Source of the DNA: Candidatus Desulfaltia bathyphila
GTDB taxonomy: Bacteria > Desulfobacterota > Desulfobacteria > Desulfobacterales > ETH-SRB1
Direction: 5' to 3'
DNA length: 64,000 nucleotides
NCBI GenBank assembly: GCA_014381545.1
Contig: JACNLL010000035.1
Coordinates: 1,741 to 65,740 of the forward strand
Part shown: one piece after another, positions 2,814-52,372 of the stretch
Layout: every line of letters starts with the position of its first letter
Numbering within the stretch: position 1 is the stretch's first letter
Notes under the pieces: model-generated
What the model saw: the letters and a program-made list of their open reading frames with translations, nothing else
What the model was told of the DNA's origin: nothing
Database searches by the model: none
Translations under genes and position numbers: made by a program

Positions 2814-5466
2814 ATTTAAGTTCGTCGTTTGCTGTTTTGAGTTTGCCGTCTAATTTTGCATATAAAACAGCCTCCAGGATTTCCCTGTATATAGGTCCCG
2901 GCTTCAAACCCATCTTTATTAACTGCTTGCCTGTGACAGAAGTAGTAATATATCTTAGCTTTGTAAAGTATCGAGATATGGATTTTTTTATCCTTTTCTG
3001 CTTTGTTACAGCCATCATATATAAGATCAGCTCTGTCTTAAAACCGCAAATTTGCTTGTAAAGAAAACTGTCTTTAACTGATACGGTTCGTTCCAGCGCA
3101 AGAAGACATTTCTCGGCCTGAAAACGTTCTTTGCAAATAATTGTTTTGTGCCGTGGTGAAAGTTCAAATCGAGTGCAGATTTCATCTGATGTTTTATCGT
3201 CACAATGCCTGACAAGCGCCAGAAAATAAACGATCCACTTCATATATAATTCATCTAAAAAAAGCAAATCATGCCATGACAATACCTTTTTAACGGAATT
3301 TAATAATGAAATAACCTCTTCGTTAATTCCTATTGAAGGATGAATCACCTTAAGTAAATTATAATCATAAAGTCTCTTAACTGCAGGCACCGGGTTTTCT
3401 TCTTCAAGAATCTGACGCAGCTCATTAAATACCCTCCGTCCGCTGAGCCGCTTGAAAAAATCCATTTTTACTGCATTGTTAATCAGCCCTGAAGTCAGTT
3501 TCCCTATTGTGAAACCAAAACGCTGCTCAAATCTTATTGCGCGGAAGGCCCGGGTCGGATCCTCAACAAAACTCAAATTATGCAATGCCCTGATACTTTT
3601 CCGTTTTATATCCCTTTGCGCCCCGAAAAAATCTATCAACATGCCGAATTTATTATGGTTAATATGAATTGCCAGAGTATTGACAGTAAAGTCTCTTCGA
3701 AATAAATCTAACTTTATTGAGCTCATTTCAACTGTAGGAAGCGCGGCAGGAAACTTGTAATATTCCATTCTGGCTGAAGCTACATCAATTTTAAAACCGT
3801 CAGGAAAGATTATAACCGCTGTGCCGAATTTTTCATGCGCATGAATACGCGCATTGAATTTTTCAGCATATTTTTTCGCAAAGGCTATGCCGTCACCCTC
3901 TATGACGATATCTATGTCCTCATTTGCTCTATACAAAAACAGATCACGAACAAATCCGCCTGCAACATAAGCATTATAACCGATTTCACTTGCCGTTTCA
4001 CCTGATGTTTTCAATATATTCATCAAACGCTCAGGAATACGTTCATTCATAAATCTTGCAACATTTCTTGTCCTGGCGTGAACCCTCTCGGTTCGCCGGT
4101 CTAATAAGCCTGTGGTTGATTCTTGTGTCTGCCGAACAAGGGCATTTAATAAATCGGTGCGTGTAATAACACCTTTTATAACATCATCATCAACGACAGG
4201 CAGAATGCGCTGCTTGTTCTCGATTATTTTTTTCTGAATTTCAGGAAGATCGGCATCAGATCCGACAACCGACAGCTCTGTTGTCATATATTCCTTTACC
4301 TGAACATAATCCAGTTTATGATAAAGCGCTTTTTCAATTACCTGGCGTGAGATAAAACCGACAAGCCTGTCCTTACCCTCTTTATCTCCGGATTTACCGG
4401 TAACTAAAAGCGCATTTACGTTATAACGTGTCAGAAAATTGTTAGCATCCTTACAAGAAATATCAGATCTTATCATAATCGGAGGAGAAGACATAAGATC
4501 CTTTGCCCATTTCTTAGGCTTAATGCTTTTATAAAGCTTCTCAATCAATTCATGTTCGGTCTGCGCCAGGGTTTTGTCCCTGATTGTAGCGGAAGCCGCA
4601 AAAGGATGCCCTCCTCCTTCAAAAGAGGTAAGTATGGTTCCAACATCGACCTCCGGCATTCTGCTTCGCGCAACAATGTAAATCTTCTTTCCCATGAGCG
4701 CCAAGGCAAAGATTACGCGGATATTTTCCATCTTAACCATTTTATGCACAAGGAAGGCAAAATCGGGCAAATAATCGTCGGTAGTTATACATGTCGCTAC
4801 AACTTCGATGCCGTTGATATTGTAATGCATTGCCGCCTGAATCATATCGTTTAAAAGACCGACCTGTTCGGTAGTTATCTCTCTATCAATCAGATTTGAT
4901 ACAATATCCAAATTTGCTCCCTTTGAAATTAGAAAGGCGGCCGCAACAAAATCGGTTTCAGTGGTGGAAGAAAAAGTAAAAGAACCTGTATCTTCATATA
5001 TGCCGAGACACAATATGGTTGCTTCATCAGGAGATAAGCCGATCCCTTTTTTCTTGATGATTTCGGTAATGATGGAAACAGTTGCCCCTGTTAAGCGATT
5101 AACCTCGTAATTTCCTTTAATATCATTTGCCATGGCTGGATGATGATCATAGATATGCACCTCTAAATCAGATTGTTTCAAAATAGATGCAAATTTTCCG
5201 ATTCGGCTTGTCTGCTTTGTATCGACAAGAACGAGCTTTTTGATATTTGAAAAGTCGACATCCTTTATATCCGCCATATTAAAGAGATATACCATCGACT
5301 TTATGAAGAAATTCCTTAGATTTTTCTCATGTGAGCCCGGGAAAACAATAATAGAACCAGGGTATAGCTTCTGAGCGGCAAGCATGGATGCCAATGCATC
5401 AAAATCAGCATTAATATGGGTGGTTATTACGGTAAGCTTTTTATCGTCTATTTTTGCCACGATCAA
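2785..5466 (-). CDS. Fusion protein: DHH/DHHA1 phosphoesterase, CBS pair and polyA-polymerase/CCA-adding nucleotidyltransferase
   Basis: 893 aa. The N-terminus has DHH motifs (HINADFDALAS, IYDHHP). CBS-like repeats lie mid-protein. GGFVRDLFL...DIDIVIEG is the head-domain motif of tRNA nucleotidyltransferase/polyA polymerase. Confidence 0.85.
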   Translation of the reverse strand: MIVAKIDDKKLTVITTHINADFDALASMLAAQKLYPGSIIVFPGSHEKNLRNFFIKSMVYLFNMADIKDVDFSNIKKLVLVDTKQTSRIGKFASILKQSDLEVHIYDHHPAMANDIKGNYEVNRLTGATVSIITEIIKKKGIGLSPDEATILCLGIYEDTGSFTFSSTTETDFVAAAFLISKGANLDIVSNLIDREITTEQVGLLNDMIQAAMHYNINGIEVVATCITTDDYLPDFAFLVHKMVKMENIRVIFALALMGKKIYIVARSRMPEVDVGTILTSFEGGGHPFAASATIRDKTLAQTEHELIEKLYKSIKPKKWAKDLMSSPPIMIRSDISCKDANNFLTRYNVNALLVTGKSGDKEGKDRLVGFISRQVIEKALYHKLDYVQVKEYMTTELSVVGSDADLPEIQKKIIENKQRILPVVDDDVIKGVITRTDLLNALVRQTQESTTGLLDRRTERVHARTRNVARFMNERIPERLMNILKTSGETASEIGYNAYVAGGFVRDLFLYRANEDIDIVIEGDGIAFAKKYAEKFNARIHAHEKFGTAVIIFPDGFKIDVASARMEYYKFPAALPTVEMSSIKLDLFRRDFTVNTLAIHINHNKFGMLIDFFGAQRDIKRKSIRALHNLSFVEDPTRAFRAIRFEQRFGFTIGKLTSGLINNAVKMDFFKRLSGRRVFNELRQILEEENPVPAVKRLYDYNLLKVIHPSIGINEEVISLLNSVKKVLSWHDLLFLDELYMKWIVYFLALVRHCDDKTSDEICTRFELSPRHKTIICKERFQAEKCLLALERTVSVKDSFLYKQICGFKTELILYMMAVTKQKRIKKSISRYFTKLRYITTSVTGKQLIKMGLKPGPIYREILEAVLYAKLDGKLKTANDELKFARNYVSKF

Positions 5467-40850: not shown

Positions 40851-42101
40851 TTATTGATTCTGTAGTCTTGCTGCATTAGATTCCGAATCGAGTTTCCACA
40901 ATATGGTCATCATAGCAAGTATTGTATAAAAAACGATTGCCTGTAGGCCGAATGTGGCATCAGCGAACATTGATTGGGTGAAGTATGCGATAAAGCTGGC
41001 CATGAGGCAAATTCCCCAATTTCTGATAAAATCATTTCTTCTGTGTCTGATTACTTTCCATCCCATCCAGACAAAGGTAAATTGTATATAGAGAAATAAC
41101 GCAAGTCCCACAAGGCCGGTCCTCACAGTAACGTCAACTAATGTATTATGAGGGGCGGCTACGATGTGTCCTTGTCGGTATTCTGGGGGAATTCTTGCGT
41201 TGTATTTATCTAAATCCAAAAGATTTTTATTTCCATACGTTTGCATGCCGAAACCTATTCCTGTGCTCGGATAAGATTTGATAATTTCTAAAGAGGTTAA
41301 ATTTATACCTATTCTTTCATTACGCAAAATATGTGTGATAGCAAAGCGATTCTTGTATCCGGGAATAATTTCTATCCCCACCAATAAAATGATAACAAAC
41401 ACAATCAAAATCTTTTTGTTTTTATTTAAAAGAAAAATCAGCGATAAGACTACCGCAAGCAGGGCACTTCTAGTTTGAGTAAGAAGCGTTACCGTTCCTA
41501 TTCCTAAAATACAAATCAGAAGAACAGCCTTGCTATATAATTTGGTGTTGTTTAACAAGTGGCTAACTGATAGAAGAAGGGCGAATACGTATATATAATC
41601 TTTATAAGCGAATAATACAAATCTACCTGAAACATCATGTCCGAGAATAATGTAATAGTAAGTGATCGCTCCGAAAGAAAAAATTGCAGCAGAAATGATA
41701 ATGGTCCACGATAGAACAATAAGTCTCTTTCTGGAATTGAAAAAATTAATCACGATATAGTAGATGGCCAGATATTTTAGCAGATGCGCGCGAAAATCAT
41801 GTATGCTGTTTCCTTTATCAAGCGCAAAGAAAAGGCCGATGAATGCCCAGGCGGTAAAAAGCGCAATTGGAAGTGTAAGAGGTGACTTGAATGAAAAATC
41901 AGTTTTTTTAAAGCAGGTTAAAATAAGGACAATTATGACAGACCCATAAAAACAGATCTCCTTTATGGACGTTGTGTGAGGGATGGGACTAAAAAATAGA
42001 AAAATCACCATCAAAATTGGGATGATCTGATTTAACACTTTAAAATAACTTGTATTTGCTTTAATTTTTTTTAACAAGAGCATTTCCCCCGATAAAACCA
42101 T
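40851..42101 (-). CDS. O-antigen ligase family protein (Wzy_C/WaaL-like)
   Basis: 416 aa with about 10-12 TM segments and a periplasmic loop containing ...AAPHNTLVDV.. (conserved His region). Confidence 0.8.
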   Translation of the reverse strand: MVLSGEMLLLKKIKANTSYFKVLNQIIPILMVIFLFFSPIPHTTSIKEICFYGSVIIVLILTCFKKTDFSFKSPLTLPIALFTAWAFIGLFFALDKGNSIHDFRAHLLKYLAIYYIVINFFNSRKRLIVLSWTIIISAAIFSFGAITYYYIILGHDVSGRFVLFAYKDYIYVFALLLSVSHLLNNTKLYSKAVLLICILGIGTVTLLTQTRSALLAVVLSLIFLLNKNKKILIVFVIILLVGIEIIPGYKNRFAITHILRNERIGINLTSLEIIKSYPSTGIGFGMQTYGNKNLLDLDKYNARIPPEYRQGHIVAAPHNTLVDVTVRTGLVGLALFLYIQFTFVWMGWKVIRHRRNDFIRNWGICLMASFIAYFTQSMFADATFGLQAIVFYTILAMMTILWKLDSESNAARLQNQ

Positions 42102-42215
42102 TTTAAGTTCTTCTTATTTTTAACAAAACGTTTACTTATATCATATAATTATTAAAAAATACACTGTTTTTTGTTATACATTGATCAACTTATGCGGAAA
42201 TTGGAGGTTGAATTA

Positions 42216-43151
42216 ATGAAGACTGTTGGAACTGTGGTAGCTACATATAATGGTGAGAGATACTTGGATGAACAATTGAAGAGTATTATAAATCAATCAC
42301 AAAGGCCTCAACAAATTGTAATTGTAGATGATTGTTCTCAGGATGAAACGAAAGAAATAATAAGGAAATATGTTAAAGAATTACCAGACCTTTTCCTTTT
42401 TATTGAAAATAAAGAGAACTTAGGAGCTAAGAAAACTTTTGAAATAGGAATTTCGAAATGTAAAACTGATTATATAGCGTTATGCGATCAAGATGATGTG
42501 TGGAAACCGGATAAGATTGAAAAACAATTTAACTCACTGGAAGATAATAGAGATTCAAAGTTATGTTTTCATGATTTAGAGTTAATTAATAAAAAAGGGG
42601 ATACACTTGCAAATAGTTACTGGAAAGTAGCACCATCCGACGAACCATTGCCGGTAATAGGTCGTCAAGCAAGGGCGCGCTTGGCTGGTTTTTCAAATCC
42701 TGTCCCGGGGTGTACAATGTTTTTTTCTTCTTCCTTAAAGGATTATATTATTCCAATATCATCTTCTATATGGATCGGTCACGATTGGTGGATATCCGTT
42801 ATAGCCTTTTTTTTTGATGCACCGACCTATATTAAAGAAACCCTTTCGAGGTATAGATTTCATCCATATCAAGCAGCAGGTATCGGGACTTCTTTAAAGA
42901 AAAAGAAGGACCAGAGAAGTGCACTTGCCGTACATGCGCGAATTGTAAGAGAAGTTAAACGAATTATTCACAAGAAGAAATCTAAAAGAATGAAGTTAAT
43001 AGCATTGAATGAAAGTAGACACGCAATGAGCATTGAACTAATTAAAATTATTGAAAAATGTGAAAAAATAAATATATATCAGAATCGAAAACATGAGTAT
43101 AAATTGCTCAGGAATCGTCTCAAGAAAAATTTGGTAACGTTCATATCTTGA
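42216..43151 (+). CDS. Family 2 glycosyltransferase
   Basis: VVATYNGERYLDEQL...IVIVDDCSQDET...LCDQDD. GGAGG lies 8 nt upstream of the ATG at 42216. Confidence 0.85.
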   Translation: MKTVGTVVATYNGERYLDEQLKSIINQSQRPQQIVIVDDCSQDETKEIIRKYVKELPDLFLFIENKENLGAKKTFEIGISKCKTDYIALCDQDDVWKPDKIEKQFNSLEDNRDSKLCFHDLELINKKGDTLANSYWKVAPSDEPLPVIGRQARARLAGFSNPVPGCTMFFSSSLKDYIIPISSSIWIGHDWWISVIAFFFDAPTYIKETLSRYRFHPYQAAGIGTSLKKKKDQRSALAVHARIVREVKRIIHKKKSKRMKLIALNESRHAMSIELIKIIEKCEKINIYQNRKHEYKLLRNRLKKNLVTFIS

Positions 43152-43198
43152 AGTATCTTAAAATCGAAAAAAAAATGTGTACCGTTTCCAACTTTTTC

Positions 43199-43282
43199 TC
43201 ATATAAGACAAACCTGATCCTGCCAGTACAGGTTAATGAGAAATGGTGTACGCGTATCAGGATACATATCATGGAAGGCTTT
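43199..43282 (-). pseudogene. C-terminal fragment of a COG1373-type ATPase gene
   Basis: The translation KAFHDMYPDTRTPFLINL parallels KAFCDMYPESRAPFLINL of the ATPase at 47761..49026. The nucleotide match is to 47836-47889. Confidence 0.55.
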
Positions 43283-43580
43283 ATTTATACCCATTGGGAT
43301 GCTTCCGATGCCATTCCCAGGCGGTAAAGAGTGCAAAAGGAAGTGTAAGTGGTGACTTAAAGGAAAAGTCAATCTTTTTGAAGCAGATTAAAATAAGGAC
43401 AATTATGACAGACCCATAAAAACAGACCTCCTTTATGGACGTTGTGTGGGAGAAGGGATTAAAGAATATGAATATCCCCATTAGTATGGGGACACTCAGG
43501 TTTAGGACCTTGAAAATCTTTTCTCTTGTGTTTTGTTCGCTTAATTGCGGCGTCGTGTCTCTAATTGTATTCATACCCAT
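43281..43580 (-). pseudogene. Chimeric fragment: 5' part of an O-antigen-ligase allele fused to the galE 3' end
   Basis: KVLNLSVPILMGIF...TTSIKEVCFYGSVIIVLILICFKK.DFSFKSPLTLP.ALFTAW parallels residues ~22-85 of the ligase at 40851..42101. It then reads EWHRKHPNGYK*, which is the GalE C-terminus. Confidence 0.75.
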
Positions 43581-43805
43581 GTTTACTTGTAAATATTCTT
43601 CTCTGTCTGCATATCATAAAGGCTTTTTTATACCCATCAGGAGATTTTCTATATCTCAATGGAAAGTAAAGAATGTAGAAACTGTTCTCCGAACAGGCTC
43701 TACATTCTCCAGCGTAGAAATGCATACCATGCGAGTTCCCGCGCAGGAGAGCGGGAACGATAAACCGCTCTGAACTCGTGAATGGTTACCAGATAAGTAA
43801 CGAGG

Positions 43806-44201
43806 CTATCTAAAGGATTTAATAGCTTTTTTTATTTCGACATCTATATGCTCTGCGGCCTTTTTTGCCTTAATAGCCTCCTCCTTTGTATATTGAGTCG
43901 GCCAGTGTACAGGATATCGTGTATCAATATAAAATCCGTTTAAAAGCCTGCAATCATCCATAAGTATTTCGAGCTCAGGTTTTTTACTCACGCATGATTT
44001 CAAAAGCATTGGCAAGTCATGAATTTTCTTGAATTCCAAATCGCAGGTTATAATTAAGGATTTCAAATACTTTTCGGCGGCCTGATGAAAATGAAAACAA
44101 ATCTGGGCGTAAAATGCACTATCTTCAATAACTGAAATGGCAAATTCAAGATCTTCATCGGCCTTCTTTAACCACTCACTAATTATTTGTGAATCAGCCA
44201 T
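43806..44201 (-). CDS. HEPN domain protein (toxin partner of an MNT/HEPN pair)
   Basis: About 130 aa, helical, HEPN-like (AEKYLKSLI...YIDTRYP). The ATG overlaps the MNT stop (ATGGCTGA). Confidence 0.85.
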   Translation of the reverse strand: MADSQIISEWLKKADEDLEFAISVIEDSAFYAQICFHFHQAAEKYLKSLIITCDLEFKKIHDLPMLLKSCVSKKPELEILMDDCRLLNGFYIDTRYPVHWPTQYTKEEAIKAKKAAEHIDVEIKKAIKSFR

Positions 44202-44514
44202 AAAGAACCCTGCCTTCACGGAGAATAGTTTTTATAAATGGGTCGCCTAATTTAATTCGCTCATCAAATTCATCGGGACGGTAAACAAGCATATCAGCAG
44301 CAATATTTCGCTCGATTAAGCCATCCAACTCGCGCATTCGATCAATGCCGCGCAAAGGTACGTCTTTTTTTATAATAAGGAAGTCCAGATCGTTAACCTC
44401 ATCATATTCTCCCCGCCCCGCAGAACCAAACAAAATTATTTTCATAGGACGATATTTCCGAATGATCTGCCCAACAATAGTTTCTATTTCTAATGTGATT
44501 TCATTTAGTTTCAT
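44194..44514 (-). CDS. Minimal nucleotidyltransferase (MNT antitoxin-type)
   Basis: LFGSAGRGEYDEVNDLDFLII is the GSxxRG...DxD Pol-beta-type NTase motif. Confidence 0.9.
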   Translation of the reverse strand: MKLNEITLEIETIVGQIIRKYRPMKIILFGSAGRGEYDEVNDLDFLIIKKDVPLRGIDRMRELDGLIERNIAADMLVYRPDEFDERIKLGDPFIKTILREGRVLYG

Positions 44515-45038
44515 AAATAATTCATATCACGTCTTTGAGAGAAAAGCAACTTCCCACTTTTCTTCATATTTTCGAAGTGTGAGCCCAAATTTTTTCAGTA
44601 TAAAGTTGCTGGAAATGTTGCATATTTTTTTGCCCCAGTCGGATTAGAAAAATCGGAACCGGAAGCAAGGATATTGATTGGCGCTTCTCAACATCTTGTT
44701 TTGTGATAACATTCAGATGATCCTTTTTAGAGCTTATTTTTGTAACCCATTGTATTTATTAGATACATAATTGGCGTCAATTATTTATACAATGCGCTTT
44801 TTCCTAACAGTCTTCAGTCTATCCACCTGAGTATTTACCTTAATTTCTTTGTATTTAAACCTATCTGCGTTTATCCTCCAAATGCGGACAAGTCTGTGTG
44901 AATCTGTGGCTGAATGGTTAGTATTCTTTTTTGCCGCCAAACTCAAGGATCTTTTTATAAAACGGGAATCCAGGTCGGTGGGCGGGGGAGGATATGAATG
45001 GTCGTGGGGTCACGAGGTACGGCGTGGGATAGTTTTTC

Positions 45039-45066
45039 TTGACAACCCTTATTCGTCGAGTATAAT
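45039..45066 (+). promoter_or_regulatory. Near-consensus sigma70-type promoter upstream of the ATPase gene
   Basis: TTGACA (45039-45044), a 16-nt spacer, then TATAAT (45061-45066). It lies ~50 nt upstream of AAGGAGG plus the ATG at 45117. Confidence 0.5.
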
Positions 45067-45116
45067 AGTCATTATTTTAACTGTTCTGTCGTGTGTTGTC
45101 GACAAAAGGAGGGGTT

Positions 45117-46370
45117 ATGCTAAATGAACTCTTCGGCATTCATGGCCGAATGATTTCAAAGATTTCGTTGGATTTCAAAAGGCGCCTTTACGAAATAATA
45201 AACTGGGACCAAAGGATGATAATTATTACCGGTGCAAGAGGAACCGGGAAGACTACATTGGTCTTGCAGCATTACCTTGAAACTTACAATGATATTAAGA
45301 AGTGCCTCTATATTTCAGCGGATAACCCATTAGTACTGAAAACCGGACTCTATAAAACGGCCGGTGAATACTTTAAGTATCATGGTGACTGTTTGATAAT
45401 CGATGAGGTTCATAAGCAAAAAGATTGGAGCATTGAAGTAAAGGCGCTGTATGACGCATATCCTGACAAAAAATTCATTATTCTCGGCAGTTCAACCTTG
45501 AATATTTTATATGAAAAAGGTGATCTTTCACGGAGAGGCGTCCTATATTCACTTCAGCCACTCTCCTTTAGAGAATATCTTGAACTAAAATATCAAAAAC
45601 AACTCCAGGGATTCTCTTTTTCTCAAATCTTGTCCAACCATATCAGTATATGCGGCAAACTTATCTATCAGTTCAAAACCATACTTGGAGATTTTAACGA
45701 TTTTTTGATAAGCGGCAGCTATCCCTTTTTTCTCAATTTTTCCCAAAATGAATATTTTGACATATTATCTAATGTCCTTGATAAAGTTATCTACGAGGAT
45801 ATTTCAACGCTAAAATCCCTGAAATCATTTTCGAGTCTAAAATTAAAAAAATTATTGGCCTTTATAGCTATGAGCAAAATACCCCTCTTTAATATCGAAT
45901 CGCTTAAGGTCGAAATTGGTGTATCAAAAGACACGTTATATGAATACTTTGATCTATTGGACAGGGCGGAAATAGTTAAGATCGTCAGAACCAAATCCTC
46001 GTCTGTACGGGTTTTTAAGAATTCAAAAATCCTCTTTAAGTCTCCCAATATCTATTATGCTGTTGCATTTGAATCATGGAAAAGCGATGTTGACAGGGGA
46101 AACATACGGGAATCATTTTTTGCATCCCAAATTGAGGGCGCTTATCCCTTGTTTTCTTCCATGAATGCCGATTTTGTAGTGATTGACGGTGAAAAACGAA
46201 TTGAAATAGAGGTCGGAGGGAAAAGCAAGAAAAGAAAACAGATAAGAAATCTGAAAGACGCTTATGTTTTTAAAGATGGTATAGAGATCGGTTTTGCAAA
46301 TTCCATTCCCCTGTATCTGGCAGGATTTTTACTGACAGATCGGCCACAAAGGCCTCGAAAAGTTAAGTAG
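45117..46370 (+). CDS. AAA ATPase of the COG1373 type (AAA_14 + DUF4143-like)
   Basis: Walker A GARGTGKTT and Walker B CLIIDEVHK. The C-terminus has ADFVVIDGEKRIEIEVGGK, a nuclease-fold-like D...E.E/K pattern. Confidence 0.85.
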   Translation: MLNELFGIHGRMISKISLDFKRRLYEIINWDQRMIIITGARGTGKTTLVLQHYLETYNDIKKCLYISADNPLVLKTGLYKTAGEYFKYHGDCLIIDEVHKQKDWSIEVKALYDAYPDKKFIILGSSTLNILYEKGDLSRRGVLYSLQPLSFREYLELKYQKQLQGFSFSQILSNHISICGKLIYQFKTILGDFNDFLISGSYPFFLNFSQNEYFDILSNVLDKVIYEDISTLKSLKSFSSLKLKKLLAFIAMSKIPLFNIESLKVEIGVSKDTLYEYFDLLDRAEIVKIVRTKSSSVRVFKNSKILFKSPNIYYAVAFESWKSDVDRGNIRESFFASQIEGAYPLFSSMNADFVVIDGEKRIEIEVGGKSKKRKQIRNLKDAYVFKDGIEIGFANSIPLYLAGFLLTDRPQRPRKVK

Positions 46371-46388
46371 TCGCATGAACCCATAAAC

Positions 46389-46425
46389 TTATTTATACCC
46401 ATCCGGATGCTTTCTGTGCCATTTT
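46389..46425 (-). repeat. Remnant of the galE 3' end (copy R2)
   Basis: The minus strand reads KWHRKHPDGYK*, compared with GalE WEWHRKHPNGYKFF*. Confidence 0.65.
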
Positions 46426-46483
46426 ATGACCGAGAATAATCATGAGAGATTTCCAGAGAAGTGAGAATGTGGGCTGTGGTTTT

Positions 46484-46834
46484 TTAAGAAAGGGTTGCCT
46501 CGCTTATTCCAAAAACTTTCGCTAACTTTTGTCTGGTTGCTTTGCGATAAACAGCGCCTTCACGTTCCCATTTTGCCACGGTTGACTGTTTTACCCCGAT
46601 TCGACCGGCAAGTTCTTTCTGTGTCCATCCCCTTTCAAGGCGCTCCCGTTTGACAGGATTCATAAAGATATAGTCTTCCGCTTCGTTCTGATCATATAGC
46701 GGTTCAGACTTGGCCTCACGAATGTCGCGCAGATCGGATTCATCTTCTATACGGTCAAGGATGGCCTGGAATGACTTGACGGGCAGCACCACAAACTTTA
46801 CTTTTCCATTTTCCTTAATTGTCTGGTATTCCAT
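46484..46834 (-). CDS. XRE-family HTH antitoxin (HigA-like) with an N-terminal extension
   Basis: WTQKELAGRIGVKQSTVAKWEREG is an HTH motif. The gene lies immediately downstream of the RelE-like gene. Confidence 0.85.
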   Translation of the reverse strand: MEYQTIKENGKVKFVVLPVKSFQAILDRIEDESDLRDIREAKSEPLYDQNEAEDYIFMNPVKRERLERGWTQKELAGRIGVKQSTVAKWEREGAVYRKATRQKLAKVFGISEATLS

Positions 46835-46836
46835 AG

Positions 46837-47097
46837 TTACCTCTTGTAAATGTCGCCACGTGGGCGGATTTTTATTATTTCTATTATTAGCCGGTCATCC
46901 TGACGTGTATAGATGACACGATACTGTCCCGCTCTGAGACGAAATCCCTCTCGTCCCTTTAAGACGTCGATATTAAGAGAGGCATTATCAGGATTTGCCG
47001 CAAGCTGATGCAAATTGCCTACTATGGCCGATTTTATTTTCAGCGGCAGGTGTGCCAGATAGTTTCTGGCCTGGCGCCTGTATTTCAATTCATACAT
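46837..47097 (-). CDS. RelE/ParE superfamily toxin (toxin-first, HigB-like arrangement)
   Basis: 86 aa. ...GFRLRAGQYRVIYTRQDDRLIIEIIKIRPRGDIYK is a typical RelE/ParE C-terminal pattern. Confidence 0.85.
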   Translation of the reverse strand: MYELKYRRQARNYLAHLPLKIKSAIVGNLHQLAANPDNASLNIDVLKGREGFRLRAGQYRVIYTRQDDRLIIEIIKIRPRGDIYKR

Positions 47098-47286
47098 GAT
47101 TTGATTATAGCTTTAAAAGATATATTGTCAAGATGAAAAAACGTTTGGAATTAATGTGCAACATATGAAAATATAAATGACCAAATCTGCGTTTTTTCAA
47201 TAATTCAGACAGCGTGAACACATGCAGCATAATCATACACGTCCTGAAATCTAATTTTTTGAACCCTGAACCCTGAACGGTTGTGG

Positions 47287-47340
47287 TATACCCATTCGGA
47301 TGTTTTCTGTGCCATTCCCGTGCGCAGGCGATGATGTCTT
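47287..47340 (-). repeat. Remnant of the galE 3' end (copy R3)
   Basis: The minus strand reads KDIIACAREWHRKHPNGY, compared with GalE EDIVATAWEWHRKHPNGY. It is about 80% identical to 50422-50475 by eye. Confidence 0.7.
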
Positions 47341-47562
47341 TTAAAAGCCTGATAACCATAGTCTAAAGACTGGATCTACAACCTGCCAAACCTGATTCTT
47401 CTTTTCAATTAAATCCATTTGCTCAAGCTTTTTTTGAGCATATTGAATCCCGCCGATGGATAGTTTATGCTTATTCATATATTTGGTTGAAAGAATCTTT
47501 GTGCTTGGATTAACAGCTAACGCTTTTAATAATAATATTTGCGGGCTGGTTAGTTCCTGCAC
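47341..47562 (-). pseudogene. Stand-alone winged-helix fragment, probably the C-terminus of a DUF234/archaeal-type ATPase
   Basis: 73 aa ending ...WQVVDPVFRLWL, as in C-terminal domains of those ATPases. No upstream ATPase domain is present. It abuts galE remnant R3. Confidence 0.45.
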
Positions 47563-47760
47563 AATGCCTTCATAACAAGGGAATTAATTATACTTTATGT
47601 CTTTCATTATTTTCAATAATTGATTCTGCTTAAAAAGTTATCTATAAATTTGTTTCAAAAGGCCGGATCGTGGTCATTATGGCTGATTTACTTCTTTTTT
47701 CTTGGTTCTCCGTGATCTATGGTAAAAAGCTTATGTCTTTCGCAGACCTTAGGGTATTTT

Positions 47761-49026
47761 TTAAAGCTCTCTACCTGAAAATGACAGATCATAAGGCAGA
47801 ATGAGTTCATATCCTTTCTCCTGTTTCTGCCTGCCCAGGTTGATAAGAAATGGTGCGCGCGATTCCGGGTACATATCACAGAAGGCTTTTAGCCCTATGA
47901 AATCCTCACGTTTAAGGTTTTCCTTATATTTAATTTCTATCGGGATCTGTTTGCTGATAAAATCCAGGATAATGTCAACTTCATGTCTGTTCTTATCTTG
48001 CCAAAATTTAATTATATCAGTTTTTATACCGCTCTTCAATAATTCAGACAGCACAAACCCCTCAAATAAGAACCCGGAATCATTTCTTTTGTTAACAGGA
48101 TTAAAATTGTTGATGAAATAATTTCTTACGCCATTATCTATAAAGTAGATTTTTGGAATTTTGACAAGCTCAGAATTTTTGTTTGAAAAAAAAGGCCTCA
48201 GGCTAACTACCAGATATGTTTCTATTAATAATTCAATATAATTAAGAACCTCTTTATAACGCAGAGAACATATCTGTCCGATCTCATTATACTTTATTTT
48301 TTGCCCGTTATTGATTGCCAGATATTCTATCAGCCGTTTTACATGACCGATCTTCGAGACATTCAGATATTCCAGCAGGTCCTTCTTGACATAGAGGTCG
48401 AAAATGCTTTCCAGGACACCTGTCTTGTCATTTTCCAGAACGACTTCGGGGTAGCTGCCGGTCACCATAAATTCATTCAAGTATGCGAATAATTTGGAAG
48501 TTAATTGCGTAAGATGCTTCCCCTTTAATTTTCTGATGTTATGCAGATGCTGAATGGCATCTTTATCTTCCTTGAACCATAAGAATTCCTCAAAGCTTAG
48601 CGGATAAACATAGGTTGTTTGTTTCCTGCCTGCGAGCGATTCCTGAATTTCGTCCTTGATTTTGATTGAAGATGAGCCCGATGCGTAAATCTTGATATTG
48701 TCGAAATTGTCGTAGATGTTTTTCATTACGAGGGTCAGCCCCGGATATCTTTGGAATTCATCAAGGAATACGTAGAAAAACTCCCTCTGATTTTCATCAT
48801 AACCGTTTAATCTTAAAGTATTTAAAAAGTTTTCGAAGGCGCTAACCTTCTCATAATTGCTGTATATATCCAAATCGAGAAAAACGGCCTTTGAACTGAT
48901 GGCAATCTCATCATGAAGCGCTTTGAGAATTGTTGTCTTGCCAACCTGCCGTGCGCCAATCAGCAGAGATACCTTTTTGTCTTTTTTCTGTTTCAGTAGT
49001 GGTTGAAGTGATTTTCTTGACTTCAT
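47761..49026 (-). CDS. AAA ATPase of the COG1373 type (AAA_14 + DUF4143-like)
   Basis: Walker A GARQVGKTT and Walker B VFLDEFQ. The C-terminus has RHEVDIILD...IPIEIKYK, a PD-(D/E)xK-like pattern. Confidence 0.85.
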   Translation of the reverse strand: MKSRKSLQPLLKQKKDKKVSLLIGARQVGKTTILKALHDEIAISSKAVFLDLDIYSNYEKVSAFENFLNTLRLNGYDENQREFFYVFLDEFQRYPGLTLVMKNIYDNFDNIKIYASGSSSIKIKDEIQESLAGRKQTTYVYPLSFEEFLWFKEDKDAIQHLHNIRKLKGKHLTQLTSKLFAYLNEFMVTGSYPEVVLENDKTGVLESIFDLYVKKDLLEYLNVSKIGHVKRLIEYLAINNGQKIKYNEIGQICSLRYKEVLNYIELLIETYLVVSLRPFFSNKNSELVKIPKIYFIDNGVRNYFINNFNPVNKRNDSGFLFEGFVLSELLKSGIKTDIIKFWQDKNRHEVDIILDFISKQIPIEIKYKENLKREDFIGLKAFCDMYPESRAPFLINLGRQKQEKGYELILPYDLSFSGREL

Positions 49027-49040
49027 CTATAATTACTCCT

Positions 49041-49072
49041 ATGTTAACTTTAGTTTAAACTAAAATTAACAT
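49041..49072. promoter_or_regulatory. 32-bp near-perfect palindrome upstream of the ATPase start (possible operator)
   Basis: ATGTTAACTTTAGTTT|AAACTAAAATTAACAT has 1 mismatch. It lies 15 nt upstream of the start codon at 49026. Confidence 0.35.
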
Positions 49073-49549
49073 ACTTTTATAAAAAGAATATACTTCTGTC
49101 AAGATATTTCTGAGGAAACTTTTGCATAATGCACGCAATGTCAATGCGAACGAATGTGCCTCAATTCCATGGCTTGTAACCGCTTGTAATTACTGGATTC
49201 CCGCTTTCGCGGGAATGACACATGAGGCAGGAATGACATAAAGATGGAATTTGATTTCTTTACAGGGGGGTAAGAAATGTACGTCTAAGGAAAGCATATT
49301 TCATCTATTGAAATATTATAAAAAACTGCTCGATTCAGATAGCTGATTCCTGATCCCTGTCTGCGTGCAACGCACAGGCAGGCCTGGCCCACGACAACTA
49401 TCAATTGAACGTTTCGCTCAATTGAGGTTATATTCGTTTTTGTCCTGCTCAATAATGGCAAAGGCTGTGGTACCGGTGAGTTCATTAAAGTAGACTTGCA
49501 GAAAACGATTTTTTCAACAAAGTCAAGGTCTGCACCTCTAAGTTTATGC

Positions 49550-49966
49550 TCATAGTATATCCTCTGTTTCAATTCCTCTTTCTTTTAAAAACAAAAGAAT
49601 CCTTTTGATAAATCGATCAGCCTTTTCAATAGAATCCCTCACCTCTTCTTCATCAAAATAGGTGATCAGATCATAATCGCCATTCTCTCTGTCTTCCTTT
49701 AAGCTGTTCAATATCTTGCCAAACTCTTTCTCAATAAGATTGTTTTTAACCAGATGTAACCCAAACATTTGTTTTAAACCATCATGGGTGTAAACATTTA
49801 TCCCGGCAATCAAAAGGGCAGCTTTTGCTGCATGAAATACTGCATAATAGGCTCTTGAAACAGCATCATCAATATCTCCAGCAGCCAGACAGTGTCGAGC
49901 TGCTTCTATCTTTTGTCTTGATTTTCTTATCATTTGAGAAATTTCCTCAATAACTATTGGGTCCAT
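49550..49966 (-). CDS. HEPN domain protein (toxin partner of an MNT/HEPN pair)
   Basis: SRAYYAVFHAAKAALL...EDRENGDYD is HEPN (PF05168-like). There is a 13-nt overlap with the upstream MNT gene. Confidence 0.85.
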   Translation of the reverse strand: MDPIVIEEISQMIRKSRQKIEAARHCLAAGDIDDAVSRAYYAVFHAAKAALLIAGINVYTHDGLKQMFGLHLVKNNLIEKEFGKILNSLKEDRENGDYDLITYFDEEEVRDSIEKADRFIKRILLFLKERGIETEDIL

Positions 49967-50295
49967 AAGGTTATCCCTTCTTTTTTTATTATCTTATAAA
50001 AATGGCTGTTTCGATGTTTCATGGTTTTCCAGTCACTCTCCGAGGTGATTTTCAATGAGATATCAGCCAAGCTGGACAAAAAAAACTCATATGCTTCACC
50101 ATAAAGTTTCTCTTTTATTACAGGATCTTTTTCATTCGTTATAATAAGCAGATCATAATCTGAGCCAGGCCGTGCAACTCCTCTTGCCCTTGAACCAAAA
50201 AGAATTATTTTTTGAATGGCCTTGCGATAATCAGTAATTATTAGATGTATAAATGTTTTAACAATAGATTCTTCAACCCTGTTTAATCTATTCAT
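49954..50295 (-). CDS. Minimal nucleotidyltransferase (MNT antitoxin-type)
   Basis: LFGSRARGVARPGSDYDLLII is the GSxxRG...DxD motif. Confidence 0.9.
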   Translation of the reverse strand: MNRLNRVEESIVKTFIHLIITDYRKAIQKIILFGSRARGVARPGSDYDLLIITNEKDPVIKEKLYGEAYEFFLSSLADISLKITSESDWKTMKHRNSHFYKIIKKEGITLWTQ

Positions 50296-50410
50296 TGCCC
50301 TTTTTCTCTATCTGCATGGAGTAAAGCTTCTTTACTCTATATTTTGATAGATATTACAAAACACTTTTGAATGTCAAGAGAACAAGAGGATTAGGCCGGA
50401 AAGAATAGAA

Positions 50411-51394
50411 TTAAAAAAATTTATATCCATTCGGATGCTTTCTATGCCATTCCCAGGCAGTGGCGACGATATCTTCCAGTTTTGCATACTTTGGATTCCA
50501 ATGTAGTTCCTGATGAGCCAGATCTGAAGAGGCTATAAGAACTGCCGGATCTCCTGGCCTTCGGGGGGCAAATTCAAAAGGAACTTTTCTGCCGCTTACG
50601 AGTTCTACAGTTTTGACTACTTCAAGGTTCGAAAATCCCTGCCCATTCCCCAGGTTATATTTGCCGTTGGGATGTTTATCCAGATTTTCCAGCGCCTGGA
50701 TGTGAGCCTGGAACAGATCCAGCACATGTATATAGTCTCTGATGCAGGTACCGTCTTTTGTCTGGTAATCGTTGCCGAATATTTGCAGCTTTTCACGCTG
50801 TCCAAGCAGAACCTGAATGGTTACCGGAATGAGAAGAGTTACGTGACGTTTTGCATCGCCAAACCTTTTGCTTGCACCGGCAGCATTGAAGTATCGCAGG
50901 GCATTGAATTTGAGGCCGTAGGCTCTATGATACCAGTCTAAAATCTTTTCAAACATCAGCTTGGATTCCCCGTAAGGATTAATCGGCATCTGAGGATGTT
51001 TTTCGTCCACCGGGATATACTGAGGCTCGCCAAAAGTGGCGGCGCTGGAGGAAAAGATTATGCGGTTGCAGTCAGCCTCTCGCATGGCATCAAGAAGTGT
51101 AATACCGTTTGCCACATTATTATTGAAAAACTGACCTGGATCGGTCATGGAGGATTCAACTCTGGTATCGGCCGCGAAATGGATTACCGCATCAATGGAG
51201 TGGTTCTGAAAAATCGTTTTCAACAAAGATCGATCGCCAGAATCCCCTTCATAGAAAATAGCCTCGGGAAGCACCGCTTTACGATGTCCTTCCTGTAAAT
51301 TATCTATTACTACTACCTTATGCCCCTGGAGCAAGAACTCTTCAACACAAATAGAGCCGATATAGCCGGCCCCTCCTGTAATTAGTAGTGCCAT
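50411..51394 (-). CDS. galE: UDP-glucose 4-epimerase
   Basis: ITGGAGYIGS Rossmann motif and YGESK catalytic motif. 327 aa of GalE-like sequence throughout. Confidence 0.95.
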   Translation of the reverse strand: MALLITGGAGYIGSICVEEFLLQGHKVVVIDNLQEGHRKAVLPEAIFYEGDSGDRSLLKTIFQNHSIDAVIHFAADTRVESSMTDPGQFFNNNVANGITLLDAMREADCNRIIFSSSAATFGEPQYIPVDEKHPQMPINPYGESKLMFEKILDWYHRAYGLKFNALRYFNAAGASKRFGDAKRHVTLLIPVTIQVLLGQREKLQIFGNDYQTKDGTCIRDYIHVLDLFQAHIQALENLDKHPNGKYNLGNGQGFSNLEVVKTVELVSGRKVPFEFAPRRPGDPAVLIASSDLAHQELHWNPKYAKLEDIVATAWEWHRKHPNGYKFF

Positions 51395-51499
51395 AGCATT
51401 TTTTATCCTTATTTTTTATCCTTTGATTTCTGGTCTTGTGTATCCTGCTTGCGGTCTGTCAACTGACAGGCATTTTTCATTCATGTGGAAATCCCTAAT

Positions 51500-52372
51500 T
51501 TAGGCAGGATATACATCTGTAAAAGGAACCAGATTCCTGCTATGGCCAGCAAAACAATTGCTGCTTTCATTGTTTATCTCCTTATTAAAATTTCCTGAGC
51601 ATTTTATCACATGATCAAGCGCCTGCTTCACAGCCTCTTTTACCTCTTTTGATTGAGGCAGGGTTGACGCAAGCTGCTCTAAATATTTGTGGCTTTGAAG
51701 GGTCTGGAATGAGGGAACAAAATTCAGATCAAATGCCCAGCCTGTCAGGAGCAGTTTAAAATCGTTTAGTGTCTTCAAATCATTTATTCTTACTGTTTTG
51801 CATTTTTTCAAAGTCTGCAAGACCTGCGGTGAACATATGGGTTCATCTGCAAGTCCCAGCTCGATGATTGGATTTGGATTCTTTTCCCGTTCATTGTAGT
51901 AATCAATAAAAACCTTCCATATATCAAGTTTGTCAGCATCTCGAAGAAGCCGTATAAAAAACAGGGTGTTTTCATCTTCTGCTTTTGGAAGAACAGCGGC
52001 ATTATGATATGCAACAGCTTTTGCGACAAGTCTTTTTTCGTATTTTGAAAATACATTCAAAATTTTATGCATCCCTATCTGTTGCAATCCCAGCCTGGCA
52101 TGGTTTTTAGAATTCATATCATTAAATGTGCCGTATACGGCATACTGTTTAAACCTTCCGATGTCATGCAGTAAAGCCGTTGTTTCCGCTAACAGCAGCT
52201 CCTGCTCTGAAATGTTTAGGGATTTGCCTAACATGACAATATTATTGCACACACGTTTTGTATGTTCTTCTTTTAACCTGATAGCGCGGTTATATTCTGA
52301 ATCAGCGGTGTAATAACCGGACACATAATCAGCAAACCAGCTCTTTAAATGTGTAAGTTCACTTTTTTTCAT
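51500..52372 (-). CDS. HD domain phosphohydrolase family protein
   Basis: LLHDIGRF and LRDADKLD motifs (H...HD...D). There is a 4-nt overlap with mobB. Confidence 0.8.
   Translation of the reverse strand: MKKSELTHLKSWFADYVSGYYTADSEYNRAIRLKEEHTKRVCNNIVMLGKSLNISEQELLLAETTALLHDIGRFKQYAVYGTFNDMNSKNHARLGLQQIGMHKILNVFSKYEKRLVAKAVAYHNAAVLPKAEDENTLFFIRLLRDADKLDIWKVFIDYYNEREKNPNPIIELGLADEPICSPQVLQTLKKCKTVRINDLKTLNDFKLLLTGWAFDLNFVPSFQTLQSHKYLEQLASTLPQSKEVKEAVKQALDHVIKCSGNFNKEINNESSNCFAGHSRNLVPFTDVYPA

Follow-up and report, generated by a model that had tools for sequence, protein, structure and literature searches.

Diverged galE ends as probable scars of successive foreign-DNA insertions between galE and an O-antigen-ligase gene in an uncultured sulfate-reducer lineage

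Prophages and islands, phage 21 and e14 at icd among them, integrate at the 3' terminus of protein or tRNA genes and restore the target with an end of their own. They depend on an integrase and on a fixed att core, and the gene end goes with them everywhere. The borders of polysaccharide (O-antigen or capsule) clusters are likewise integration hot spots flanked by core genes, usually through clean double-homologous replacement. Foreign DNA can also enter through a single homologous anchor, either by homology-facilitated illegitimate recombination (HFIR) or by circularisation of a fragment and a single crossover, giving an insertion-duplication (de Vries & Wackernagel 2002; Prudhomme et al. 2002; Amarir-Bouhram et al. 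2011, PMC3240628). HFIR joins are reported at microhomologies of 3-10 bp, and the single-crossover route is reported to duplicate 109-950 bp of the homologous end in E. coli (PMC3240628). C-terminal displacement arrays are found at rhs, CDI and T6SS effector-immunity loci (Jackson et al. 2009, PMC2935791; Kirchberger et al. 2017, PMC5361080); there the 5' part of the gene is kept, each newly arriving module shifts the earlier 3' ends, with the genes linked to them, further downstream as a series of orphans, and HFIR, with no involvement of an integrase, has been proposed as the mechanism.

The window analysed here, a stretch of 64,000 nt from Candidatus Desulfaltia bathyphila, carries an intact galE gene separated from the O-antigen-ligase gene by several small cassettes (Table 1). 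Across 30+ related loci (L numbers below) galE is 79-94% identical, and the variable region is found on one and the same side of the gene throughout; the window's galE shows 90-91% nucleotide identity to that of L006-L012. In the simplest relatives (L016, L030, L086, L087, L090, L094, L095 and L098) the ligase follows galE immediately. The window instead contains, reading outward from galE, block C, copy 3, block B, copy 2, block A, copy 0 with a foreign ligase stub, copy 1 and the resident flank, the copies being repeats of the galE end. Pfam searches uphold the cassette annotations first given to the blocks, which comprise HEPN, nucleotidyltransferase, AAA_14/DUF4143, ParE-type toxin and HTH_3/RelB-like antitoxin domains; block C gave PADLOC matches to PDC-S01, PDC-S09 and PDC-M05. 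The entire arrangement was assembled independently in three other assemblies (L001-L003) at 99.9% identity without gaps and is therefore not an assembly artefact.

Table 1. Features between the O-antigen-ligase gene and galE in the window.
Feature	Coordinates	Strand	Basis or relationship
Intact galE, UDP-glucose 4-epimerase	50411..51394	-	TIGR01179 400 bits (cutoff 262), Pfam Epimerase; homologous anchor
Reference galE end (last 65 nt)	50411-50475	-	Ends GYKFF then stop, F-type tail
Block C, proposed newest insert	47341..50410	-	Pfam; absent from L166
MNT, block C	49954-50295	-	Pfam
HEPN, block C	49550-49966	-	Pfam
REP-like repeat, block C	49177-49239
ATPase_C gene (AAA_14-DUF4143), block C	47761-49026, upstream region to 49112	-	Pfam; 85-86% identical in L013, L092
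wHTH C-terminal fragment of Arch_ATPase-like gene, block C	47341-47562	-	C-terminus of longer ATPase in L179
Copy 3, last 54 nt of T-type galE allele (KDIIACAREWHRKHPNGY)	47287..47340	-
Native tail and flank of copy 3 (ACCACAACCGTT, then CAGGGTT repeats)	47199-47286	-
Block B	46480..47140	-	Pfam; RelE/XRE pair
Consensus promoter of block B's own	47104-47131	-	12/12 consensus positions matched
RelE/ParE toxin, block B	46837-47097	-	Pfam
XRE/RelB-like antitoxin, block B	46484-46834	-	Pfam
Copy 2, last ~35 nt of K-type galE allele (KWHRKHPDGYK then stop)	46389..46425	-	Nearest intact ends: L011, L006 (94%)
Block A	43663..46388	mixed	Pfam
ATPase_A unit, convergent, block A	45033-46370	+	74-83% nucleotide identity in L173-L177
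C-terminal remnant of 463-aa ATPase, block A	44606-44785	-	Matches ATPase gene 3' end in L006, L011, L096, L166
MNT, block A	44194-44514	-	Pfam
HEPN, block A	43806-44219	-	Pfam
Copy 0, decayed galE end and about 20 nt of ATPase-fragment flank	43624..43662	-	Directly upstream of foreign ligase 5' region
Foreign O-antigen-ligase 5' region and codons 1-88	43326..43608	-	Repeat D1; 82% identical to resident ligase
Copy 1, last 45 nt of K-type galE allele	43281..43325	-	93% identical to intact ends of L016, L007
DUF4143 ATPase C-terminal fragment (KAFHDMYP...)	43213..43282	-	Repeat D4; begins at galE stop codon
Resident O-antigen ligase (Wzy_C)	40851..42101	-	Pfam

The original prediction, made by reading the DNA alone, held that diverged copies of the galE end bound three blocks, and this proved correct. 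The last 35-54 nt of galE are repeated in the same orientation as copies 1, 2 and 3, and a further, decayed copy (copy 0) is present. The copies were used to build a degenerate 28-nt pattern, which, with up to 3 mismatches allowed, matched only four sites (43288-43315, 46396-46423, 47289-47316 and, in galE itself, 50424-50451) and had no match in 100 dinucleotide-preserving shuffles. A repeat search returned the same four sites together with 43619-43658 as one family (D2), and extended copy 3 to its full 54 nt (D3). Over a 35-nt core the four good copies are 74-86% identical to one another in pairwise comparison, and the degenerate copy is 60-69% identical to the others. That copy, proposed as probable at 43628-43662, is genuine: aligned with copy 1 and its downstream flank it scores 21, against a null of 8.4 +/- 1.6, a value matched by 4 of 2935 random windows, some of them possibly true homologues. 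The predicted translations of the copies were recovered from the open reading frames, that at 43281-43580 ending in FTAWEWHRKHPNGYK and a stop codon, while 46389-46424 spells the copy 2 peptide and the copy 3 peptide falls within the frame at 47105-47359. What the displaced ends encode is the conserved C-terminus of galE, over 11-18 codons; the toxin-antitoxin (TA) genes stand apart from them, in cassettes that have their own promoters.

Direct repeats in the same orientation are the usual product of duplication, and the two copies in L007, about 97% identical, resemble a fresh local duplication. The galE 3' region of this genome could accordingly have been duplicated, in tandem or as a segment, the copies diverging in place and unrelated genes being inserted between them later. 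The allelic affinities of the window copies speak against such a history. Every remnant bears the tail or the downstream flank of its own, distinct natural allele of galE that is intact in related Desulfobacterales MAGs, and each is nearer to some foreign intact galE end (90-94%) than to the window's own (77-86%). In L008, L010 and L166 an intact galE ends natively in the tail seen at copy 3 (GY-TTTVQGSG, then the CAGGGTT repeats), and the flank of copy 3 is orthologous to the L007b flank. The junction of galE with the DUF4143 fragment also occurs after intact galE in L014 (10934-11018) and L093 (3315-3399), 84% identical over 87 nt. With three allele-specific tails or flanks in the window, each beside an intact galE in other genomes, and a ligase stub that matches the resident ligase at 82% but those of L011, L088 and L030 at 84-85%, duplication within this genome is highly improbable. 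The foreign ligase 5' region is read as the far end of a DNA segment that came in from outside.

Comparison with L166 provided a view of the locus at lower complexity. Positions 651-1388 of L166 correspond to the window from 47319 to 46457 at 90-96% identity and are continuous with an intact galE; block B, 96% identical, follows that gene directly and block C is absent. Since intact galE is joined straight to the copy 3 flank and the RelE/XRE pair, L166 represents the empty site for the galE-proximal block. The repeat-bounded presence or absence of a cassette among relatives, proposed at the outset as a check, is thus found, and the idea of the galE terminus as a reusable entry point at which cassettes accrete holds. 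Relative to L166, the last ~240 nt of the window's galE are 2.6x more diverged than the remainder of the gene (18.1% vs 7.0%; maximum chi-square), a value reached in none of 500 permutations, and the 3' end showed no excess divergence in the control comparison with L009. The intact galE looks mosaic, with a tract apparently derived from a donor; a search for a donor genome with the exact layout of block C found none. Similar events are seen in L088 (a 273-nt remnant, about 83% identical to its own galE), in L007 (a 186-nt remnant, about 97% identical to its galE) and in L013/L092 (remnants of about 47-54 nt).

It might be argued that the array was built elsewhere and moved in as a whole, by double homologous replacement through arms in galE and the LPS genes. 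Arrays of this kind have been proposed to travel as units by ordinary homologous recombination (PMC5361080), and copy 0 and the ligase stub evidently did move together as a pre-existing scar. A transfer of the entire array would, however, relocate the making of the scars and leave their origin unexplained, and the intermediate state of L166, with block B and without block C, favours stepwise growth over one-step transfer. This scenario, too, has a very low probability.

The original prediction compared the repeats with those left by integrating elements, which bring a copy of the gene end with them. In that case small islands with a galE 3' end as attP would have been inserted by a tyrosine or serine recombinase acting in trans or since lost, and the copies would be repeats of the attL/attR type. 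The identical orientation of all copies, the stop codon as their common boundary and the exactness with which they bound the blocks fit this reading, and elements can bring a replacement 3' end, as phage 21 and e14 do; the repeat-bounded polymorphism between the window and L166 fits as well, but is equally predicted by a homology-anchored model. Across events, however, the galE-side breakpoints lie at five positions (-35, -45, -54, -186 and -273) rather than at a fixed one. Three remnants, copy 3, that of L013/L092 and a partial one in L011, do share their start codon (-54), with two different upstream partners, which hints at a preferred site and counts in favour of integration. The divergence of the copies leaves no invariant core beyond the coding-constrained motif.

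The junctions show microhomology with unrelated partners. Upstream of copy 1, which junction alignment shows fused to ligase codon ~88-90, ligase and galE share 7-10 nt (ACCGCCTGGG/GCCTGGG); downstream of it, the galE downstream region and the ATPase share AAAGCCT (7 nt); the L088b junction has GAAAA (5 nt). Microhomology is shown for these three resolvable junctions, to which those of copies 2 and 3 do not belong, and the reading at the L007b junction is ambiguous. The cassettes also occur apart from galE. Both block B in L167-L172, at about 89% nucleotide identity, and the ATPase_A unit in L173-L177 lie within unrelated flanks and extend no further than their own promoter and stop codon; no galE-like end was found beside them.

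Nor did searches for a recombinase yield a candidate. The absence of an integrase from the window, already remarked in the original prediction, was borne out by Pfam analysis of all sizeable open reading frames, and those of the L007, L088 and L013 inserts contain TA and ATPase genes only. Searches by tblastn with XerD, Hin and lambda Int gave 0 matches in 2.08 Mb, comprising about +/-10 kb around each galE, a weak test run with no positive control. Phage, plasmid and viral collections gave no match. As single-stranded DNA the repeats have no excess folding (z -0.18 to +1.47), a point against att-type repeats; an integron cassette array, which has an IntI integrase with attI and attC sites at the cassette ends that fold into imperfect hairpins, was rejected on the same ground and for want of an integrase. 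Taken with the variable breakpoints, the microhomologies and the cassettes that occur elsewhere without galE-like sequence, these results make site-specific integration unlikely. The fallback offered in the original prediction, that of homologous exchange at the LPS cluster's border, comes closest to the data.

Ordinary recombination with galE as its anchor, rather than a dedicated integrating element, is the most likely origin of the scars. We consider it probable that foreign DNA entered between galE and the O-antigen-ligase gene in at least three successive insertions, each with homologous crossing-over in galE on one side and an illegitimate join on the other, and that the galE-end copies are the non-functional scars left by them. 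In the pathway and order of events that we infer, the incoming DNA would consist of the 3' part of a donor galE and a downstream cassette. One side would recombine homologously inside galE, and the far side would be joined illegitimately, at a microhomology of a few bases, within the final 35-273 nt of the resident gene. This may have occurred by HFIR, or by circularisation of the fragment and a single crossover, which would duplicate part of the homologous segment. The donor galE end would become the working end of the gene, the truncated resident end and its native downstream DNA would be pushed outward, and repeated events would stack blocks between galE and the resident flank. The foreign ligase stub upstream of copy 1 can be understood in these terms as the expected trace of a donor fragment whose end fell within the neighbouring gene. 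RecA-type crossing-over would be inefficient between stretches of 35-54 nt that are about 85% identical, so that the short remnants would need an HFIR-type join inside galE or later trimming.

The likeness to HFIR and single-crossover insertion lies in the single homologous anchor, in the insertion of about 1-3 kb of foreign DNA and in the joining of the other end at microhomology, the 5-10 nt observed here agreeing with the range reported for HFIR; the partial duplication of the single-crossover route matches the 186- and 273-nt remnants. The three remnants of 35-54 nt are, in contrast, shorter than the experimental duplications. The known cases are also laboratory events, whereas those described here are deduced from natural sequence in an uncultured sulfate-reducer lineage and were repeated at least three times at one site. 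Displacement of old ends and linked genes is shared with the rhs, CDI and T6SS loci. An array of that type was nevertheless rejected: its displaced ends encode variable toxin domains and its retained genes are the cognate immunity genes, while here a housekeeping epimerase whose end is conserved acts as anchor for a cargo of independent TA and ATPase cassettes with promoters of their own.

The locus resembles the prophages of gene 3' ends in having an intact gene with a substituted 3' end, a displaced partial copy beyond the insert and scope for tandem accretion; the integrase, the fixed att core and the travelling gene end of those elements were not found. As at other polysaccharide-cluster borders, a conserved sugar-nucleotide gene would serve as recombination arm and the neighbouring content is highly variable among close relatives, but the scars point to events that were imprecise and one-sided, with TA and defence-candidate genes, not glycosyltransferases, as cargo. 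The galE-end scars are a clear instance of a kind of event that is already known, and by such events TA and ATPase genes would have come to be stacked at the edge of the lipopolysaccharide cluster.

The window covers a lipid A and LPS core region (BamA, Skp, LpxD/A/I/B/K/L, MsbA, LptFG, WaaA, heptosyltransferases and several glycosyltransferases) with galE at its edge, in an organism grouped with Desulfobacterales MAGs labelled Ca. Desulfaltia / Desulfobacteraceae. Three remnants comprising the last 35-54 nt of galE (copies 1-3), together with a decayed one (copy 0), recur beyond the intact gene (see table). The intact end and copies 1-3 delimit block C (MNT/HEPN, ATPase_C and a wHTH fragment), block B (RelE/XRE) and block A (ATPase_A and MNT/HEPN). 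A degenerate 28-nt pattern matched exactly the four good sites of the window (copies 1-3 and the intact end) and nothing in 100 shuffles, and a repeat search put all five sites into one family. Core identity among the good copies is 74-86%, and copy 0 aligns with copy 1 and its flank far over background. With four matches against none expected, motif-level or chance similarity was rejected, as was an assembly chimera, the arrangement having been recovered at 99.9% identity in three independent assemblies. The resemblance noticed in the original prediction is beyond chance, and its translations of the copies and its cassette annotations were correct.

Coordinates and sequence features of galE, its end copies and their junctions
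Feature	Position	Orientation	Remarks
galE, UDP-glucose 4-epimerase	50411-51394	minus	TIGR01179, 400 bits vs cutoff 262
Copy 3 of galE end	47287-47340	same as galE	
Copy 2 of galE end	46389-46425	same as galE	
Copy 1 of galE end	43281-43325	same as galE	
Copy 0, decayed galE end	~43624-43662		
O-antigen-ligase gene	40851-42101		
Remnants starting at -54	window 47287-47345; L013 3580-3640; L092 11420-11480; L011 3860-3895		
CAGGGTT heptamer	window 47262-47282; L007 10915-10945, 11955-11985; L010; L166		
Copy 1 upstream junction			foreign ligase codon ~88-90 to galE; GCCTGGG exact; ACCGCCTGGG with L007-type galE allele
Copy 1 downstream junction			L030-type galE downstream sequence to ATPase KAF codons; AAAGCCT
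L088b (galE fragment in L088) junction			DNA just after antitoxin stop codon to galE codon ~235; GAAAA
L007b (galE fragment in L007) junction			same antitoxin end as L088b to galE codon ~263; microhomology ambiguous

Comparison with related loci (L-numbers) placed each remnant with a natural galE allele. Intact galE genes end in GYKF(F) followed by TTCTATT (F-type; the window, L006 and L011), in GYK (K-type; L007, L012, L014, L030 and L036) or in a longer GY-TTTVQGSG tail with CAGGGTT repeats behind it (T-type; L008, L010 and L166). The working end in the window is F-type, copy 3 is T-type with its native tail retained, and copies 1 and 2 are K-type; for every remnant, the window's own end is a poorer match than at least one foreign intact end (90-94%). 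The CAGGGTT heptamer stands in tandem, 2-4 times, right after the T-type tail, its copy number differing between loci. The stop codon of copy 1 abuts a DUF4143 ATPase fragment (C-terminal part), and the same junction is found after the intact galE in L014 and L093 (84% over 87 nt).

A Thermodesulfobacteriota MAG contig, L166, carries at 651-1388 an intact galE end with tail, flank and RelE/XRE pair, 90-96% identical to window 47319->46457; relative to it, an insertion in front of copy 3 gives the window the 3.07-kb block C and a new galE end. Judged from the alignment, L166 is an empty site lacking block C, and provides the repeat-bounded presence/absence polymorphism that the original prediction had called for. 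The window galE itself differs from that of L166 by 7.0% in its first part, rising to 18.1% in the final ~240 nt (maximum chi-square; observed value reached in 0 of 500 permutations). Not every relative gave a clear breakpoint: the test was significant for L166, L086, L010, L088 and L007, and non-significant for L006, L011 and L009. Since the L009 comparison shows no 3' end excess of divergence, the pattern is not simply relaxed constraint. The mosaic fits a crossover inside galE by which block C and the current 3' end would have arrived jointly.

Relatives differ in what follows galE. In the simplest ones (L016, L030, L086, L087, L090, L094, L095 and L098) the ligase gene follows galE within ~75 nt, while in L006, L011, L015 and L096/L097 the two are separated by 1-4.5 kb of ATPase genes, TA genes and gene debris. 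In L088, galE is separated from the ligase first by a 1.7-kb insert, with a 470-aa ATPase and antitoxin debris, and then by a galE fragment of 273 nt, ~83% identical to the locus' own galE. In L007, a RelE-like/XRE pair lies between galE and a galE fragment of 186 nt (~97% identity to that galE); the downstream flank of the fragment is orthologous to that of window copy 3. The remnant in L013/L092 measures ~47-54 nt and that in L011 is partial. When 154 galE loci were each scanned with their own end, extra copies were confined to the close clade, L007, L088 and L092. In L010, a putative YhgA/Rpn-like ORF identified by eye (MTEITNPHDRFFKEVL..., 3459-4037) lies ~1.2 kb downstream of galE.

On the galE side, there are five distinct breakpoints: -35, -45, -54, -186 and -273 (nt before the galE end). 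The microhomologies at the copy 1 and L088b junctions match the 3-10 bp reported for homology-facilitated illegitimate recombination (HFIR). In the alternative route, a fragment with one-sided homology circularises and then enters by a single crossover; in E. coli this leaves 109-950 bp of the homologous end in duplicate (PMC3240628). Parent sequences of the copy 2 and copy 3 junctions were sought and not recovered. For copy 3, the search for the native 3' flank of wHTH gave only six homologues, L178 and L179 diverging 12 nt before the junction; for copy 2, no empty site with an intact galE beside ATPase_A was seen, the ATPase_A relatives lying in other contexts. The exact donor of block C was not found among the relatives compared. 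Copy 3 shares the -54 start (codon K-D-I) with the remnants of L013/L092 and L011. Two different partners lie upstream of the -54 remnants, the wHTH stop codon or an ATPase (...PYDL), and copy 3 and the L013 remnant have a W-to-R change (TGG-to-CGG) in common. These remnants may descend from one event later overwritten upstream, or may mark a favoured site. At copy 1, an open chimeric ORF of 99 codons (43281-43580, minus strand) joins ligase residues 1-88 to the last 11 of galE; it is intact with a start codon, its ligase part has two or three predicted membrane helices, and it is probably a pseudogene.

In the original prediction, small defence/TA islets had stacked up at the galE terminus, and the repeats were likened to the att-like copies that elements integrating into the 3' end of a gene leave behind. 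The accretion idea was upheld; the integrase mechanism was not. The locus lacks three of the four defining features of an att-flanked integrative island. In agreement with the original prediction, no sizeable ORF of the window showed an integrase domain, and none a transposase domain either; the inserts in L007, L088 and L013 contain TA and ATPase genes only. A tblastn search with XerD, Hin and lambda Int gave 0 matches in 2.08 Mb of fetched loci, a weak test run with no positive control. Elsewhere, both the RelE/XRE unit (L167-L172, ~89% nt identity) and the ATPase_A unit (L173-L177, 74-83%) extend from their own -35 box to the stop codon, without galE-like sequence. Phage or plasmid origin was rejected: the 7.2-kb islet has no blastn match in phage or plasmid collections, and the galE-end pattern is absent from 2.9 million viral contigs. 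A functional RNA, terminator or attC was rejected as well, Rfam returning nothing at E <= 0.1 across 42000-52000 and the repeats showing no excess folding. The galE-end structure works like HFIR or insertion-duplication, and the mechanism itself is not new; a homologous crossover in galE with an illegitimate join at the far end, by HFIR or by circularisation and a single crossover, is the probable account.

The RelE/ParE-XRE pair (46480-47140, minus strand) forms a conserved unit that reaches from its -35 box to the stop codon. In L167-L172, unrelated metagenome contigs with completely different flanks, it again adjoins Wzy_C ligase, epimerase or AAA_14 genes; antitoxin homologues number 847 at E <= 1e-10, with 84-100% identity among the 120 matches listed. 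The ATPase_A unit (45033-46336, plus strand) recurs at 82-83% nt identity in L173 and L174/L175, after an N-terminal wecB (Epimerase_2) fragment in L174 and before a C-terminal wecB fragment in L173, so that in sequence the relatives look as if a single gene had been inserted into wecB. Because the TA unit (~89%) stands beside Wzy_C or epimerase genes in unrelated contigs, because ATPase_A relatives apparently lie within wecB, and because three remnants start at one galE codon, one could imagine that minimal promoter-to-stop cassettes (RelE/XRE and single-gene AAA_14-DUF4143 ATPases) are mobilised by a mechanism not yet described, which would work in trans or without a recombinase and favour sugar-nucleotide epimerase genes, at their ends or within them, where these border polysaccharide clusters, with galE -54 as its target. 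We regard this as very unlikely.

Under one-sided homologous and illegitimate recombination, the starting state would have been a K-type galE, an ATPase fragment, the family-2 glycosyltransferase gene (GT2) and the ligase. Event 1 would have introduced, along with a K-type galE end, the convergent ATPase_A, ATPase debris and MNT/HEPN, an older scar (copy 0) and the 5' stub of the donor's ligase; its join 45 nt before the resident galE end would have left copy 1. Event 2, a T-type end plus RelE/XRE joined 35 nt before the then-current end, would have left copy 2. Event 3 would have delivered the present F-type end, MNT/HEPN, ATPase_C and the truncated Arch_ATPase wHTH, its join 54 nt before the T-type end yielding copy 3.

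The GT2 gene (42171-43151, plus strand) falls within the kilobase of lowest GC (0.326) in the window. It is encoded opposite to the copy 1 flank and the resident ligase, between which it lies; the relatives, with their galE, ligase, GT4 layout, lack it here, and it is probably a further acquisition. Intergenic DNA of block C contains a palindromic, REP-like repeat (ttcccgctttcgcgggaatgac...; 49177-49239) that is also present at 43735-43765, with copies at unrelated positions in L007, L009, L014, L016, L030, L088, L091 and L093. A stretch at 44606-44785 (minus strand), 84-92% identical in L006, L007, L011, L096 and L166, was rejected as a "conserved non-coding element": it is a decayed ATPase C-terminus, from a gene encoding 463 aa that L006 and L011 carry intact.

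The structure is like the displacement arrays of rhs, CDI and T6SS loci (PMC5361080); unlike there, the anchor in the window is a housekeeping gene, and the cargo consists of independent TA and defence-candidate genes (PADLOC PDC-S01, PDC-S09 and PDC-M05). Such cassettes, stacked without an integrase, can look like att-flanked islands; predicting islands from direct repeats of gene ends calls for caution on this account. With nested scars, an empty site and sister-lineage events, one-sided homologous plus illegitimate recombination can be read from sequence, making this locus an unusually legible natural record, from an uncultured clade of syntrophic sulfate reducers (Ca. Desulfaltia / ETH-SRB1 relatives), of a core-gene border turning into a hot spot.
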